From positions 12,958,001-13,022,000 of the forward strand of contig OX597827.1 in assembly GCA_951406725.2 (NCBI GenBank): DNA of 64,000 nt, in the 5' to 3' direction. The translations under genes and the position numbers were made by a program. Of the stretch, positions 16,476 through 60,620 are shown in pieces. The notes under the pieces are model-generated. The model made no database searches, was not told the origin of the DNA, and saw nothing but the letters and a program-made list of their open reading frames with translations. Within the stretch, counting starts at the first letter, position 1. The number at the start of each line of letters is the position of its first letter. This stretch comes from Octopus vulgaris. Taxonomy: Eukaryota.

Positions 16476-17155
<680 letters not shown>

Positions 17156-17329
17156 TATATATATATATATAAGCCTTTTTGCTTTGTTAGTTTTTCATTT
17201 TGGATTTTTGGATTATTTAACCACCACCCTTTTCCTGGGTTAGAAAACAAAGCATGGTTTGATACTGTTTTCTTGACATATTTCTTCAAGTTCTTTATGT
17301 TATGATTTCGAATTCTGCCAAATATACAA

Positions 17330-22544: not shown

Positions 22545-22905
22545 AGTAAGTAGCCTGTTTACCAACCACATGGCACCTTGGGCAAGTGTCTTCTACTATA
22601 GCCTCGGGCCGACCAAAGCCTTGTGAGTGGATTTGGTAGACAGAAACTGAAAGAAGCCCGTCGTATATATGTATAAATATGCGTGTGTGTGTTTGTGTGT
22701 CTGTGTTTGTCCCCCTAGCATTGCTTGACAACCGAAGCTGGTGTGTTTATGTCCCCGTTACTTAGTGGTTCGGCAAAAGAGACCGATAGAATAAGTACTG
22801 GGCTTACAAAAGAATAAGTCCCGGGGTCGACTTGCTCGATTAAAGGTGGTGCTCCAGCATGGCTGCAGTCAAATGACTGAAACAAGTAAAAGAGAGTAAA
22901 GAGAA
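22545..22905 (+). mobile_element. SINE family A (head partly deleted)
   Basis: Homology to family consensus. Confidence 0.85.
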
Positions 22906-23199
22906 TATATACATGTAGATGATGATTATAATAGCATTGATGATAATAACAACTATGATGATGATCATGATGCAGAGAGAGAGAAAGATATGAAAGGAGA
23001 GTCAGAGAAGAGAAGAGAAAAGCAGAAAGAAACAGACTAAAGGAAAATACACTTCTGTGAATATATTATTGTCTGTTAAACAATGAGAACAGCTAAGTCA
23101 GTAAGATAAGCATTTTAACAAATAAAACATATGCATACATACATACATACATATATGTACATACCTACATCTATATGTATATATATATGCATATATATA

Positions 23200-23663
23200 A
23201 AAATTTGAATTATAACGTCGGATGTAATCAATTGAACCACACGTGTATTTATCGTTATGGTAAAATCTGGCGTGTGATTGAGTGGATTTCATCCAGATAG
23301 TTTTGGCTGAGGAGCTACAAGTGGATTTTTTGTAAGTAAAATTACATTTAATTCATTAATAGCGAAACAATTGTCCCAAAATAATCTGTATTTTTGTTAT
23401 TTTTTATTTGCCCTGTTCGTGTGAGCTAACAATCGTACTGACTTTCATGGGAAACATGTATTTTTGTGGTTGAAACCTTTTGGATTAACTAGTGCTAGAG
23501 TGAGCCATATAGTGACCACTCTCTTATATTTATTTTTGTATAAAATATTATAATATATTATAAAATATTATAATAATCCAGGTTTCTCGGAGCACTGGGC
23601 CACTTGGTGTTGAATAGATATACTATTAAATTAGTATCTAATTCTCTCACCCTTATTAATTAA
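23200..23663 (+). mobile_element. (TA)n-embedded HHR-bearing non-autonomous element (Penelope-like/retrozyme-like)
   Basis: Unique block between TA tracts containing an intact HHR; sequence 3' of the HHR is homologous to 39424-39470. Confidence 0.7.
23296..23386 (+). ncRNA. Type I hammerhead ribozyme, intact core, predicted GUC cleavage after 23375
   Basis: gatagTTTTGG-CTGAGGA-GCTA...TAGC-GAAA-CAATTG-TC-CCAAAAtaatc; all three helices pair; helix III palindrome ACAATTGT. Confidence 0.85.
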
Positions 23664-24928: not shown

Positions 24929-25010
24929 TATTTATTCACATTGTTTTTGAATTAATCAGGCATTATCGCATAATTTCAAAAGTTTGATGAAGTTATTGTT
25001 TATTTTAAAA

Positions 25011-25344
25011 ATAATAATAATAATGAAATTATTGTATACAGTGCTCAGGTGCACCACAACTTGTCAGAAAGTGCGTATAAAGTATATGCAGTCATGCACA
25101 AAAGTCTGGAAAGCGAACAATGTATGAGTCAGATACATGCTTGTGTGTGTATGGAGGGGAGGAAATCAGGTGTAGTGTTGGCGAATCTCAGAAAGCATGG
25201 AAGTTTTGAAGGATGCAGTGCTCCAACAACTAACAACTGATGCCGGCAGTTTGTTCCATGCTTCAGCAACTCTCAGCGTGAAAAAATGTTTCCGAAAGTC
25301 ATGGGAGCTGTGCTGTTTTCTGACTTTGTAAATATGTCCACGGT
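25011..25344 (-). mobile_element. CR1 LINE 3' end
   Basis: Reverse complement of about 1997-2330. Confidence 0.9.
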
Positions 25345-38443: not shown

Positions 38444-38519
38444 TAGATATGTATATATGTGTGTGTGTGTAAAAAAAAAGCCAGTTTCCAATCTAGATTC
38501 AGAGCTCCTTCATTGGGAT

Positions 38520-39077
38520 TTCAACATCCTTGCCGAACGCCAGACTGTATTTCGGAGGGTTCCAACACTTCACCGTACACGCGTACGCGGGATCTTGTTG
38601 AGTGGTAACAAGCTTTGATAAGATTGAGAAGTTTTGGTGGGATACCATCTGCCTGCAACACCTTCAAGAGGGTGTCACGATCGACGGAGTCGAATGCAGC
38701 AGCAAAATCAACTGAGCAGATAACTGTTTTTTGCTGAAAGCACCAACGGTATTCGAGGATTTGTCTTAGGGTGAAGATTTGATTGGTGCAGCCTTGATTT
38801 GGATGGAAACCACACTGGTTTGGTCTTGTTCTAGAGTCACATTCTCATTGGAATCGTCTCAGAAGAATAGATGCAAATATTTTGGCGGAAATGTCAATCA
38901 TACTGATGCCATGGTAGTGGCTGTAGCAGCGTTTATCACCTTTCTTAAAGAAAGGTACCAGTGTCGCGTCGCCCAAGTCTTGGGGGAGGGTTTCCGTATC
39001 CCAAACCCGGGTGATAACTTGATGAATCGCGTGCCCCAGTATATTTGCACTATGCTTGAGGATCTCAACAGGAATGT
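38520..39077 (-). mobile_element. RTE-clade LINE reverse-transcriptase fragment (pseudogenised)
   Basis: IPVEILK...LVPFFKKGD...YHGISM...KIF, stop, then QCGF...QIFTLRQILE...VDFAAAFDSVDR. Confidence 0.9.
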
Positions 39078-39580
39078 TATACAATTGTTTCATCATTAAT
39101 AAATTAAGTAATTTTACTTACATAAATATCTTAGAATCTTCAGTAGAGTACGTCAAAAATATAATTTGTCGAACTGCACGGCAAATATCAACACAAGGTT
39201 TAGAGAGAGATGCACAGTTCAGTCGATTATATTCACAGTTACATTCAAATGCTCTTGTTCTGGCATGCTAAATTACCGGATATAAATACTGCATAAGTAA
39301 TTTACTGCCGGTGATATTTGCCGTGCAGTTCAACAAATTATATTTTTGACGTATTCTACTGAAGATTCTAAGATATTTATGTAAGTAAAATTACATAATT
39401 TATTAATGATGAAACAATTCTATAGGGTTAATCTATATTTTCGTTATTTTTCATTTGTCCTGCTCGCTTACGTTTTTGATGTGTTGAATTATTACTTGAG
39501 AACAATTTTTAGTGGTGGATTCCCTTTGCGGATCTATATCTAGCATAAGAACGTCCACATAGTGGATTCTCTCTTATAGT
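39078..39580 (+). mobile_element. HHR-bearing element with 5' inverted duplication (arms 39078-39190 and 39312-39424) plus 3' extension
   Basis: Inverted arms of about 113 bp, each with CTGAAGA...GAAACAATT(G/C)TA; same family as 23200-23663. Confidence 0.75.
39353..39428 (+). ncRNA. Type I hammerhead ribozyme, degenerate (mirror copy at 39078-39149 on -)
   Basis: ATTCTA-CTGAAGA-ttc...gat-GAAA-CAATTC-TA-TAGGGT; helix I pairs, helix II weak, helix III has one mismatch in the + copy but is intact in the - copy. Confidence 0.65.
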
Positions 39581-39582
39581 TG

Positions 39583-39646
<64 letters not shown>

Positions 39647-40268
39647 TATATTAATTATATTTATATTATTTGTTATTTATGTATTGGTTTATGTCTATCA
39701 CTGTTTGAGTTGCATAATAGTGTTTTTATCTCTAATTCATATTATACATATATATATATATGTATATATAATCAGGTTATCATCAACTTACAGCCTATCT
39801 GACTTACGACTGATCAACATCACGATGATTTGTGCACCAGCTCATGTTAGCAATAATAAATAGTCCAGTTGAAATCTATTGGGTTTAATTTCTTAGAAAT
39901 TAACCTGTCTATGGATGATATCAGCTAACAGATGCTTCCCTGTAGTTTGGTTATCAATTGCCACATGGTTATTCCAAGTGCTGGATGGATATCCAGTCAC
40001 AGAGACATTGAGGCAACCTCGTATTTGTTCATAAGACAACTGCTTGAAGCTCAGAAATTTTCACTAACTCCAGAATAATAGTATAATATAGAATGCTGTG
40101 TGTGAGTTTTACCTGAGAATGTCCCTTAAGAGCCTAAAAATACAAAACAAAGCTATATAGGCCTATAGGCCTATTGACTTATGACTAGTCATTCGGAACC
40201 AATTGCAGTCGTAAATCGACAACAACAGGTACATATATATATTTATATATATATATATATATATATAT

Positions 40269-40762
40269 ACGTGAAGTATATTAGCCATCTCAATATGGCT
40301 AAGCACTAAGGGTGGGTGTTACTGTAGCTTTTAGCCCCAGGAGATCATCGTCTCCAGCTGGCTTTAGGCACACTTTCTGTGGCCTTATGGTATTTGCAAA
40401 GGGAGGTCATCCCTCTCTCGTCAACCTAAGTGATACGCACGGACTGCAATTTCTAGGTATTTGCCTGTCTTCGGCGTATGGCGTTCGAAAACCGGTGATT
40501 GCCGTACGCTGAAGACAAGCAAATACCTAGAAACTGCAGTCCGTGCGAATCACTTAGGTTGACGAGAGAGGGATGACCTCCCTTTGCAAATACCATAAGG
40601 GCATAGAAAGTGTGCCTAAAGCCAGCTGGAGACGATGATCTCCTGGGGCTAAAAGCTACAGTAACACCCACCCTTAGTGGTTAGCCATGGTGAGATGGCT
40701 AGTATACTTCACGTTGTCGAGCAGTTACTGTTTACATCTCGTTCAGATATTTATTGTTGCTT
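40269..40762 (+). mobile_element. 446-bp palindrome (214-bp arms, 18-nt spacer) plus 48-bp tail in (TA)n; HHR-bearing Penelope-like element
   Basis: Arms 40269-40482 and 40501-40714; tail gagcagttactgttta...atttatt shared with 60577-60620. Confidence 0.8.
40503..40547 (+). ncRNA. Minimal type I hammerhead ribozyme, predicted GUC cleavage after 40541 (mirror copy 40436-40480 on -)
   Basis: CGTACG-CTGAAGA-caag-caaata-ccta-GAAA-CTGCAG-TC-CGTGCG; helix II is better paired (AGG/CCT) in the mirror copy. Confidence 0.75.
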
Positions 40763-40767
40763 ATATA

Positions 40768-41185
40768 TATATATAATTATAACAATAAGGGTTTAGCAAC
40801 AAGTTGCTTGACCACATACCAAAAATTTTAGAAATAGCTATTTCTTTTTTCTACAAAAATATGTCTCCATGCGTTCATAATTAATCGAAGACTGTTTGAT
40901 TTCATTATTTTTCTTCTTCTTCATTGCCATGTGTGAGTTACAAATATTGTTATCTGTGGAGACATATTTTTGTAGAAAAAAGAAATAGCAGACTTTTGGC
41001 TGCTATTTCTAAAATCTTCAGCATGTGGTCAAGCAACTTGTTGCTAAACCCTTATTGTTATAATTATATATAAAAAAACTTTTTGTACAAGTTTTTACCG
41101 ACTATGGTCCTTTTCCATACCGAAAAACTACTAGGTGAAATTTGTTAATTTTATTAAATTAATAATTATTTACCCAAATCTGTAA
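40768..41185 (+). mobile_element. (TA)n-embedded palindrome-plus-tail element
   Basis: Inverted arms agggtttagcaacaagttgcttgaccaca.../...tgtggtcaagcaacttgttgctaaaccct; tail ggtccttttccataccgaa...ggtgaaatt shared with 58168-58450. Confidence 0.75.
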
Positions 41186-43208: not shown

Positions 43209-43630
43209 TGCAGGAGTGGCTGTGTGGTAAGTAGCTTGTTTACCAACCACATAGTTCCGGGTTCAGTCCCACTGCGTGGCACCTTGGTCAAGTGTCTTCT
43301 ACTATAGCCTCGGGCCGACCAAAGCCTTGTGAGTGGATTTGGTAGACGGAAACTGAAAGAAGCCTGTCCTATATATGTATATGTATGTGTGTGTGTGTGT
43401 GTGTTTGTGTGTGTGTGTTTGTGTGTCTGTGTTTGTCCCCCTAGCATTGCTTGACAACCGATGCTGGTGTGTTTATGTCCCCGTTACTTAGCAGTTCGGC
43501 AAAAGAGACCGATAGAATAAGTACTGGGCTTACAAAGAATAAGTCTCGGGGTCGATTTGCTCGACCAAAGGCGGTGCTCCAGCATGGCCGCAGTCAAATG
43601 GCTGAAACAAGTAAAAGAGTAAAAGAGAGA
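43209..43630 (+). mobile_element. SINE family A
   Basis: Family homology. Confidence 0.9.
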
Positions 43631-44012: not shown

Positions 44013-44111
44013 TGGCTTCTTTCAGTTCTTATCTACTGAATCCACTCACTAGTCTTTGGTCAGCTTAAGTCTATGGTAGAAGAGACTTGCCCAAGGTATG
44101 CATTTCTCCTT

Positions 44112-44341
44112 GGCGGCGAGCTGGCAGAAACGTTAGCATGCCGGGCAAAATGCTTAGCGGTATTTCGTCTGCATTACGTTGTGAGTTCAAATTCCGCCGA
44201 GGTCGACTTTGCCTTTCATCCTTTCGGGGTCGATAAATTAAGTACCAGTTACGCACTGGGGTCGATGTAATCGACTTAATACCTATGTCTGTCCTTGTTT
44301 GTCCCCTCTGTGTTAAGCCCCCTTGTGGGCAATAAAGAAAT
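44112..44341 (+). mobile_element. SINE family B monomer with 18-bp TSD
   Basis: aggtatgcatttctcctt at 44094-44111 and 44342-44359. Confidence 0.92.
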
Positions 44342-45111
44342 AGGTATGCATTTCTCCTTATCTTCTTTTCACATGTTTGTTTTGCTACTATTTCGCTGAA
44401 TATCCTAACCAAATTTAGGATAGTGTTTCAAACCTTTGCTTCATTTGTAGATTTTTCAATGAACGCTACATACCAAAGAAAAGATTGATCATTGTAATTT
44501 TATTGTTTTCCTTTGTTTTTTGGGGTGTTTTTTTGTTTGTTTTTTTTTTTTGTTTTTTGCTGCCCTCATCATGCATAATGCTCGTGCTGTAGATCATAGA
44601 TTATATTATGATTGAAGAGACACTGACTAATTGCTTCCAAAATACACAAGTATTAATGCATCCAATTAGAGAATTGTAACCAGCTAGAGTCTCTTCTATG
44701 CCTTCTTTCTGCAATAATAGTGCATGCATAAGTCTATTTAGAAACGGTGGAGGCAGGCTTGAGAATGTTCATATTCCATTAGAAGCATAATTTGATTTCT
44801 CTCTATAATACAAAAAGGCCAGAAATATGAAGCATAATGTTGTACGGCAGGGAACAATGGAGCATGAATCCAGAGGGTGTGCATAAATTAAGAGAGAAAT
44901 TAAGTATGATGTACTAGATTTGTAATGTCGCGTTAAAAAGGAAGGCTTAAGTGCAAGTAAATTGAGGGAGCTACAGATCAAACAGCATAGATAGATTTGA
45001 GCCAGAGATAACAGCTCCAGATTTTGGGTTGCTAATTAGAATGGCTGATAAAGACAAGGTAAAATATACCACACGGTTCCATGTGAAGACTCTCAGATCA
45101 GAGGTTGGCTA

Positions 45112-58135: not shown

Positions 58136-58167
58136 TGCATGTATATATATATATATATATACATATA

Positions 58168-58450
58168 TACTTAATAATTAGGGTTCAACAAATATTTGCT
58201 TTACCACATACCGAAGTTTAGAAATAGCAGCCAAAAAACCTTAGCTTCTACTTTAAAAGTAGAAGAAATAGCTAAGGTTTTTTGGCTGCTATTTCTAAAC
58301 TGTGGTATGTGGTAAAGCAAATCTTTGCTGAACCCTAATTATTAAGTATTACTTAAGTTTACCGTGAAACGGTCCTTTTTTCATGCCGAATTCTACTTGG
58401 TGAAATTATTGATTACTTCTTAATTAATTAATTTTACCCTTTGTTATTAT
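58168..58450 (+). mobile_element. (TA)n-embedded palindrome (58168-58349) plus tail; family of 40768-41185
   Basis: tacttaataattagggttca.../...tgaaccctaattattaagta arms, then shared tail. Confidence 0.8.
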
Positions 58451-60439: not shown

Positions 60440-60620
60440 TAATATAAGCGGGGCCAGCCATCTGAATGTGGCTAGGGACAGGGCGGGGTGGTGGGGGTGT
60501 TACTGATGCATTTCAGTAACACCCCCACCACCGCCCTGTCCCTAGCCACATTCAGATGGTTGGCCCGCTTATATTACAGAGCAGTTACTGTTTATACCTC
60601 GCTTAGAGATTTATTATTAT
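60440..60620 (+). mobile_element. Short palindrome (60440-60576) plus tail in (TA)n; diverged relative of 40269-40762
   Basis: Shared agccatct.aat.tggcta, gggtgttactg and tail gagcagttactgttta..ctcg...aga.atttatt. Confidence 0.8.

Follow-up and report, generated by a model that had tools for sequence, protein, structure and literature searches.

Hammerhead ribozymes in Penelope-like elements (PLEs) are known and common, and the motif alone is unsurprising. Type I hammerheads in the pseudo-LTRs (pLTRs) of metazoan PLEs were described by Cervera and De la Pena (2014; PMC4209133), the accessible text of which reports mostly solo copies, opposite-strand pairs 100-700 bp apart, a palindromic helix III and low in vitro activity that is seen only with dimers. 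The dimer model is also found in the available part of a review (PMC6765202), which cites Lunse, Weinberg and Breaker. According to the accessible text of a later study (PMC11167929), cleavage by the hammerhead of Anolis Poseidon, the one reconstituted PLE, requires protein but is dispensable for in vitro insertion; catalytic mutants still insert, and no RNA-seq reads end at the cut.

A second group of comparable ribozymes is listed in File S2 of Craig et al. (2021; PMC8557442), where, in the part available, Hydra-clade PLEs have (TA)n targets and carry a hammerhead near the 3′ end with a palindromic helix III of 8-10 nt. The core-motif search of that study allowed a spacer of 7-17 nt between the core halves and left cases of 35-50 nt unassigned. 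The latter include the “HHR_half_core” of Naiad elements, in which 35-50 nt separate the two core halves and the targets are again (TA)n; one case is from Octopus vulgaris, and no helices are assigned to them in the accessible text (PMC8557442). PLE insertions are further marked by inverted 5′-truncated copies, (TA)n targets and one-sided tails, the tail being 30-40 bp long (accessible parts of PMC8557442 and PMC3846280).

Here we analyzed a 64-kb stretch of O. vulgaris DNA (the window), in which an earlier note had pointed to an intact hammerhead at 23296..23386. Our reading of this locus (copy A), in which we place considerable though not full confidence, is that it carries a complete type I hammerhead motif whose helix II spans 50 nt and which is likely left over from an octopus Penelope-like pseudo-LTR, with self-cleavage predicted only as a dimer. 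Two further copies, B and C, lie about 16 kb downstream (Table 1).

Table 1. Coordinates of copies A, B and C and of neighboring features in the window.
Feature	Position	Strand	Remarks
Solo, likely 5′-truncated terminal-repeat fragment with hammerhead copy A	23201..23540	+	Boundaries approximate; between two TA-rich microsatellites
Copy A, whole hammerhead motif	23294-23388	+	Sequence and folding
Copy A, helix I, 5′ strand	23294..23306	+	Pairs with 23376-23388 at 12 of 13 positions (pair probability 0.91-1.0)
Copy A, catalytic core, 5′ half (C3-A9)	23307..23313	+	Sequence
Copy A, expanded helix II, 50 nt	23314..23363	+	4 bp, 2x2 loop, 8 bp, 3x3 loop, 5 bp, 6-nt loop
Copy A, apical hairpin	23331..23346	+	16/16 identical in A and B
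Copy A, GAAA	23364-23367	+	G12 = 23364
Copy A, palindromic helix III, 8 nt	23367-23374	+	Sequence
Copy A, cleavage triplet GUC, C17 = 23375	23364..23375 (segment with GAAA and helix III)	+	Predicted cut after 23375
Copy A, helix I, 3′ strand	23376..23388	+	Pairs with 23294-23306
TA-rich microsatellites flanking copy A	23127-23199 and 23539-23573		Repeat scan
Copy B, direct arm	39312..39590	+	Core 39359-39365, GAAA 39411-39414; ends at (TA)n
Copy C, inverted arm of B	39078..39190	-	Core 39143-39137 intact, palindrome intact, triplet GUA, H17 = 39080
Spacer between head-to-head arms B and C, 121 nt	39191..39311	.	Inverted-repeat layout
Second hammerhead family in Penelope-like insertion	40269-40760	both	Inverted arms of 214 nt separated by 18 nt; flanked on each side by TA repeats
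LINE reverse transcriptase (RT) fragment	38446-39078	-	AP-endonuclease type; ends incomplete, one in-frame stop; best hit an O. vulgaris predicted protein, 81% identical
LINE C-terminal part	16646-17194	-	Weak tblastn matches to RT tails, C2H2 finger match

Anatomy of Copy A

By sequence and by folding, copy A is a type I hammerhead for which self-cleavage is predicted in the dimer. The conserved type I core (C3 U4 G5 A6 G8 A9 / G12 A13 A14, A15.1-U16.1 and H17) is complete in copies A and C; helices I and II surround it in copy A, with the motif open at helix I, and the 8-nt palindrome is perfect in both copies, including positions 15.2-16.2 and loop III. The core sequences CUGAGGA, GAAA and GUC named in the earlier note are all present in copy A, and its cut position agrees with C17 of the GUC triplet. 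Its helix I of 11 positions with one mismatch was also recovered between 23296 and 23386, the mismatch being A.A and one pair G.U, and folding adds two further pairs beyond, so that 12 of 13 positions are paired. The expanded helix II it described likewise holds: 42 nt are enclosed by a 4-bp closing stem with a G10.1-C11.1 pair, and base pairing starts directly after A9 with no unpaired base there. Helix II alone folds at -13.3 kcal/mol with pair probabilities of 0.91-1.0, and every pair of helices I and II reaches a probability of at least 0.91. In the predicted structure, helix II opens into an internal loop beyond its first 4 bp and helix I has a mismatch beyond its first 7 bp, an arrangement that could allow the tertiary contact between loop II and helix I seen in fast natural hammerheads.

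The 103-nt region around copy A has a fold z of -3.7, with none of 200 shuffles equally good, and its fold is the most stable among the three copies. Copy A is the sole match to a type I descriptor on both strands of the window. When this descriptor, which was composed after copy A was known, was run on 300 windows shuffled locally in 1-kb blocks, it gave one match at the loosest setting and none at two stricter ones. No Rfam hammerhead model matched, either in the window at gathering score or in 23200-23560 and 39000-40800 at E values up to 10. Matches to Rfam U4 and microRNA-precursor models were set aside as low-scoring or due to inverted repeats. A scan of bacterial and archaeal genomes with a two-motif pattern yielded one match (L001, 3001-3045, minus strand) without the 5′ half of the core or the cleavage triplet, which we take as chance.

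Comparison with Described Hammerheads

The family has in common with the metazoan PLE hammerheads the type I topology, the complete core, a palindrome as helix III, flanks rich in A and U, solo copies as well as opposite-strand pairs, and a dimer-type fold, as far as the accessible text of PMC4209133 describes them. The difference lies in helix II, which spans 45-50 nt here, about double the maximum of roughly 23 nt among the 56 motifs shown as representative in its Fig. S3 (extracted text). The consensus of that figure also shows an unpaired base after A9 and a short helix II with a small loop, whereas copy A has neither; its helix I is longer than in the metazoan motifs of the accessible text, and no linked ORF is shown for it. 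The family is thus a variant, not a plain member, of the metazoan PLE-type hammerhead.

The target, position and palindrome of the Hydra-clade ribozymes recur here. At 10.1-11.1 they carry either U.U, as copies B and C do, or G-C, as copy A does, the former in 14 of the 34 File S2 rows available (PMC8557442). Their helix II is short, however, and the sole octopus member in the accessible list, Hydra-1_oBim, has another sequence (by eye and by exact motif search). A longer helix II region is given in the available rows of File S2 for the spike-moss elements PLE-X1_sMoe (53 nt) and PLE-X1_sTam (about 48 nt), both marked non-canonical; PLE-X1 are plant, endonuclease-less elements targeting 28S rDNA, and the likeness drawn here to our family is one of helix II length. 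The Naiad “HHR_half_core” label had raised the suspicion that our copies are identical with Naiad_Ovul, which we rejected on its 3′ end, unlike A, B and C. In the accessible sequences, the 3′ ends of Naiad_Ovul and Hydra-1_oBim bear no likeness to these copies by eye or by an exact motif search that is blind to line-end breaks. In the part of the PMC8557442 supplement available, the Naiad_Ovul consensus and the entry preceding it have in common a small conserved stretch behind the stop codon that contains a splice-donor-like motif, as judged by eye.

In the literature searched, which was mostly non-subscription, no report of this hammerhead family was found, although a repeat catalogue may already list it. 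Searches on octopus or cephalopod ribozymes and Penelope elements returned only one octopus hammerhead, of another sequence. Searches for a long natural stem II gave none, and a wider query gave only the split mammalian hammerheads, whose insertions are far longer (PMC2920678, accessible text).

Copies B and C

Within the window, searches by blastn, nhmmer and a covariance model yielded copies A, B and C only, inspection having covered the covariance-model matches above the 38 lowest. The next match of the model, at 58218-58298 (27 bits), is a plain hairpin without the core. Copies B and C are identical at 109 of 113 positions (96%), and since they are the near-identical head-to-head arms of one insertion, they count as one lineage. 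They also point in opposite directions, and partnering between them within one transcript is impossible.

Helix II of copy B is 45 nt long. Its core is kept, but 39420 is C where A and C have G, so the triplet reads CUA; a C.C mismatch at 15.2-16.2 breaks helix III and destroys the palindrome, and the fold z is 0.0. The earlier note had described this copy, at 39353, as having a replaced helix I that still pairs. This stands for the six core-proximal positions, all of which pair (four Watson-Crick, two G.U), four of them altered on both sides, but not for the distal part, where 3 of 7 pair. In B and C, U.U at 10.1-11.1 does not have to be read as damage: it also stands in the File S2 rows cited above. 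The end of copy C lies no more than about 2 nt from the cut site, so that the 3′ strand of helix I is missing.

Covariation Between A and B

Eight of the 31 pairs are altered on both sides between A and B (five in helix I, three in helix II), a number reached in 2 of 500 shuffles, although kinship of the sequences may itself outscore shuffles in this test. Slid registers of the pairing give 0-2 both-sided changes. In the core-proximal part of helix I, 4 of 6 pairs are altered on both sides, and swapping the strands leaves 2 of 6 pairs when the 5′ strand of B is joined with the 3′ strand of A and no Watson-Crick pair in the opposite combination. In a neutral simulation at rates of 0.3-0.75, the six proximal pairs all survive in 0.7-1.7% of the trials having at least four both-sided changes. 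Only 1 of the first 7 bases after the cut is identical between A and B, vs. 10/12 and 32/38 (83-84%) in the flanking stretches.

The apical hairpin behaves in another way, with all five pairs and the loop invariant between A and B; copy C carries one change there. At a background identity of 75-84%, the 16 nt would remain invariant by chance in 1-6% of cases; this points to the sequence, not the pairing, as the thing constrained. The hairpin TGTAA-gtaaaa-TTACA, noted earlier as common to both copies, is therefore indeed shared, but as it never varies it offers no evidence of compensation.

Likeness of A and B continues for about 165 nt past the cut, both finishing at a TA repeat; the 3′ flank is identical at 32/38 positions, and none of 1000 shuffles was equally good for the last segment. 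Upstream, homology in local alignment is not significant, 857 of 1000 shuffles being equally good, although one core-anchored register has 21/41 identical positions vs. 9-13 in six other registers.

As far as the sequences go, the covariation is real, but support comes from two lineages only. The claim in the earlier note that compensatory change indicates selection on RNA structure is thus supported by the both-sided changes, but its reach is narrowed: most probably the mobile lineage was under this selection while it was retrotransposing, not the present genomic copies. Copy C and the three both-sided changes in helix II go beyond what that note had observed.

Monomer and Dimer

As a monomer, copy A has its active fold at -22.4 kcal/mol vs. 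-25.1 kcal/mol for the minimum free energy (MFE) structure, that is 2.7 kcal/mol higher, and the probability of helix III is 0.01. The claim of an intact hammerhead hence holds for the core and for helices I and II, whereas the monomer is predicted to lack helix III, making the motif intact by sequence only. A monomer transcript would probably cleave little for this reason, which does not refute a ribozyme. The palindrome forms a self-duplex of -6.4 kcal/mol, and for two A copies the MFE structure is exactly the active double hammerhead, at -56.0 kcal/mol vs. -50.2 kcal/mol for two monomers. In the folding model, helix III of copy A is formed only in the dimer.

We propose the following course, of which the fold is predicted and the remainder drawn from PLE biology. 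Tandem copies in one transcript of the parent element would have supplied the dimer partner. Two such copies would exchange their helix I strands, each retaining its own helix II, and their palindromes would pair into an 8-bp intermolecular helix III. Cleavage may have been slow or aided by the element's protein and would have trimmed the precursor RNA, with compensatory changes presumably becoming fixed in the master lineages then active. All three copies in the window are probably passive insertions: B lost helix III, C is without the 3′ strand of helix I and A, though intact, is without a same-strand partner in the window.

Surroundings and Penelope-Like Features

The nhmmer span of copy A is 23251-23533. 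Insertion into (TA)n is seen at both ends of A and at the 3′ end of B, and B and C form 5′-joined inverted arms of 113 nt, 96% identical and 121 nt apart; (TA)n flanks and inverted 5′-truncated arms, both of them PLE insertion marks, are thus found. A one-sided tail is present only in the other family (40715-40760), copy C is incomplete, and target duplications are unreadable inside the microsatellites. No PLE RT or GIY-YIG domain was found in 147 ORFs (55 of the 182 listed, from 17-29 kb and 34-45 kb, and 92 unmasked ones elsewhere), nor any element ORF in the reading frames of copies A, B and C, where it is expected to be missing because the copies are 5′-truncated. The sole RT found, at 38446-39078, was rejected as a linked PLE ORF, being an AP-endonuclease-type LINE unrelated to the hammerhead. 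From their sequence and by analogy, copies A, B and C are likely built like a PLE end; we do not claim PLE membership itself because the ORF test failed in the window.

About 41% of the window is multi-copy repeat or low-complexity DNA. Short interspersed repeats of two or three families, presumably octopus SINEs, occupy about 27% of it (e.g., 22571-22906, 43210-43627, 44111-44347). A 334-nt inverted duplicate, 96% identical, lies at 1997-2330 and 25010-25343, 23 kb apart, and the nested inverted repeats at 40768-41072 and 58163-58344 belong to a single small family that may be a miniature DNA transposon. In O. vulgaris, 6.83% of the genome consists of PLEs, which fall into 190 families (PMC13282606, available part), so that several such remnants are expected per 64 kb.

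A second hammerhead family, unrelated to A, B and C, is seen in the insertion at 40269-40760. The plus-arm core at 40509 has a palindromic helix III, a GUC at 40539-40541 and a short helix II damaged at 40518, while in the minus arm (core at about 40474) core and palindrome have one change each; a tail of about 45 nt is found on the plus arm alone. A near-perfect inverted repeat between TA repeats at 60451-60620, similar at its right end to this family's 3′ end and tail (nhmmer E 4e-8), is a third, shorter Penelope-like remnant without a hammerhead. The inverted arms differ at 4/113 positions in B/C and 11/214 in the second family; on a scale of distance 0.09 per 25 million years (PMC13282606, available part), both insertions would be roughly 5-7 million years old, an estimate that gene conversion would bias.

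Alternative Explanations

A chance arrangement of motifs in AT-rich repetitive DNA would be in keeping with the lack of an Rfam match and with a descriptor composed after copy A was known, but 0-1 matches in 300 shuffles, the z of -3.7, the covariation and the three homologous copies leave it almost no credence. Another reading is that the host recruited copy A as a regulatory RNA that cleaves itself within an intron or UTR, and that it stayed intact for this reason. We judge this very improbable: a perfect core and a fold more stable than those of B and C would suit it, yet a recent insertion equally gives intactness, the solo copy is predicted without helix III and no host coding exon was recognized near A in the ORFs scanned.

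Readings within mobile-element biology deserve more attention. Copy A might be a dispersed monomer of a non-autonomous non-LTR retrozyme multiplying as tandem repeats and circular RNA. Non-LTR retrozymes of animals are, as here, small non-coding units with a type I hammerhead; the unit of about 340 nt without an ORF agrees with this, dispersed retrozyme monomers are common and retrozymes have been argued to derive from pLTRs (bioRxiv 10.64898/2026.07.22.740005, accessible text). They are, however, defined by tandem units, and the window has no tandem unit at A and no head-to-tail copies; together with the head-to-head inversion of B and C, a PLE insertion signature, this makes a retrozyme origin quite unlikely. 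It is also conceivable, although unlikely, that, with the origin unchanged, the fold persisted chiefly because it gave the element's protein a signal for binding or folding, with the helix II tip serving as a sequence-specific handle and cleavage being incidental or protein-dependent. The invariance of the apical 16 nt while helix I turned over fits such a role, as do the protein-dependent cleavage and insertion-competent catalytic mutants of Anolis Poseidon (PMC11167929, accessible text). Against it, A and C retain every core position and the palindrome, and in silico the dimer adopts the active form without help. A protein signal of this kind is compatible with our preferred reading of a dimer-type pseudo-LTR hammerhead and does not exclude it.

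A Candidate Splice Donor and the End of Copy C

A donor-like motif lies at 23332-23337 in copy A and at 39381 in copy B, its frequency in the window predicting about 0.015 per insert of equal length; we take both sites to match the 5′ splice-site consensus. The site lies inside a stem and its exon side is a weak match. For the acceptor, copy B has one good candidate (39579), whereas in copy A the corresponding place lacks an AG and the candidates are all weak, and a good acceptor in B alone counts against the intron idea. According to the accessible texts, PLEs carry 5′-UTR introns starting in the pLTR (PMC8557442), and in Drosophila virilis the end of the PLE intron abuts helix I (PMC4209133).

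The H17 of copy C is at 39080 and the LINE frame, which matches P0097 from residue 169, runs from 39078, so that at most about 2 nt lie between the junction and the cut. Were ends evenly spread over the roughly 280 nt available, such a coincidence with the cut site would occur in about 2% of cases, a post hoc estimate from one case. The upstream part of the LINE and the remainder of C are absent from the window, and a later deletion explains the end of copy C equally well.

These observations would fit a speculative scheme, which we think fairly improbable, where helix II acts as a switch. The invariant tip would hide a 5′ splice site; splicing would remove the 3′ half of the ribozyme to give mRNA, while unspliced, cleavable RNA would serve as the insertion template, and the cleaved 5′ product would be reverse-transcribed, an event that copy C would record. 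If true, the splice switch and the cleaved template would explain why PLEs retain introns and what PLE ribozymes are for.

Implications for PLE Ribozymes

What is new in copies A, B and C, relative to the accessible parts of the sources compared, is a helix II of 45-50 nt, beyond published search patterns and with plant precedents. The A/B family shows that, in an animal, a long insert between the core halves can form a helix II that pairs and covaries. Since a long insert can be helix II, ribozyme counts in PLE-rich genomes are probably low. For the role of PLE hammerheads, a question raised in the available parts of PMC11167929 and PMC8557442, copy A offers a clean test substrate.
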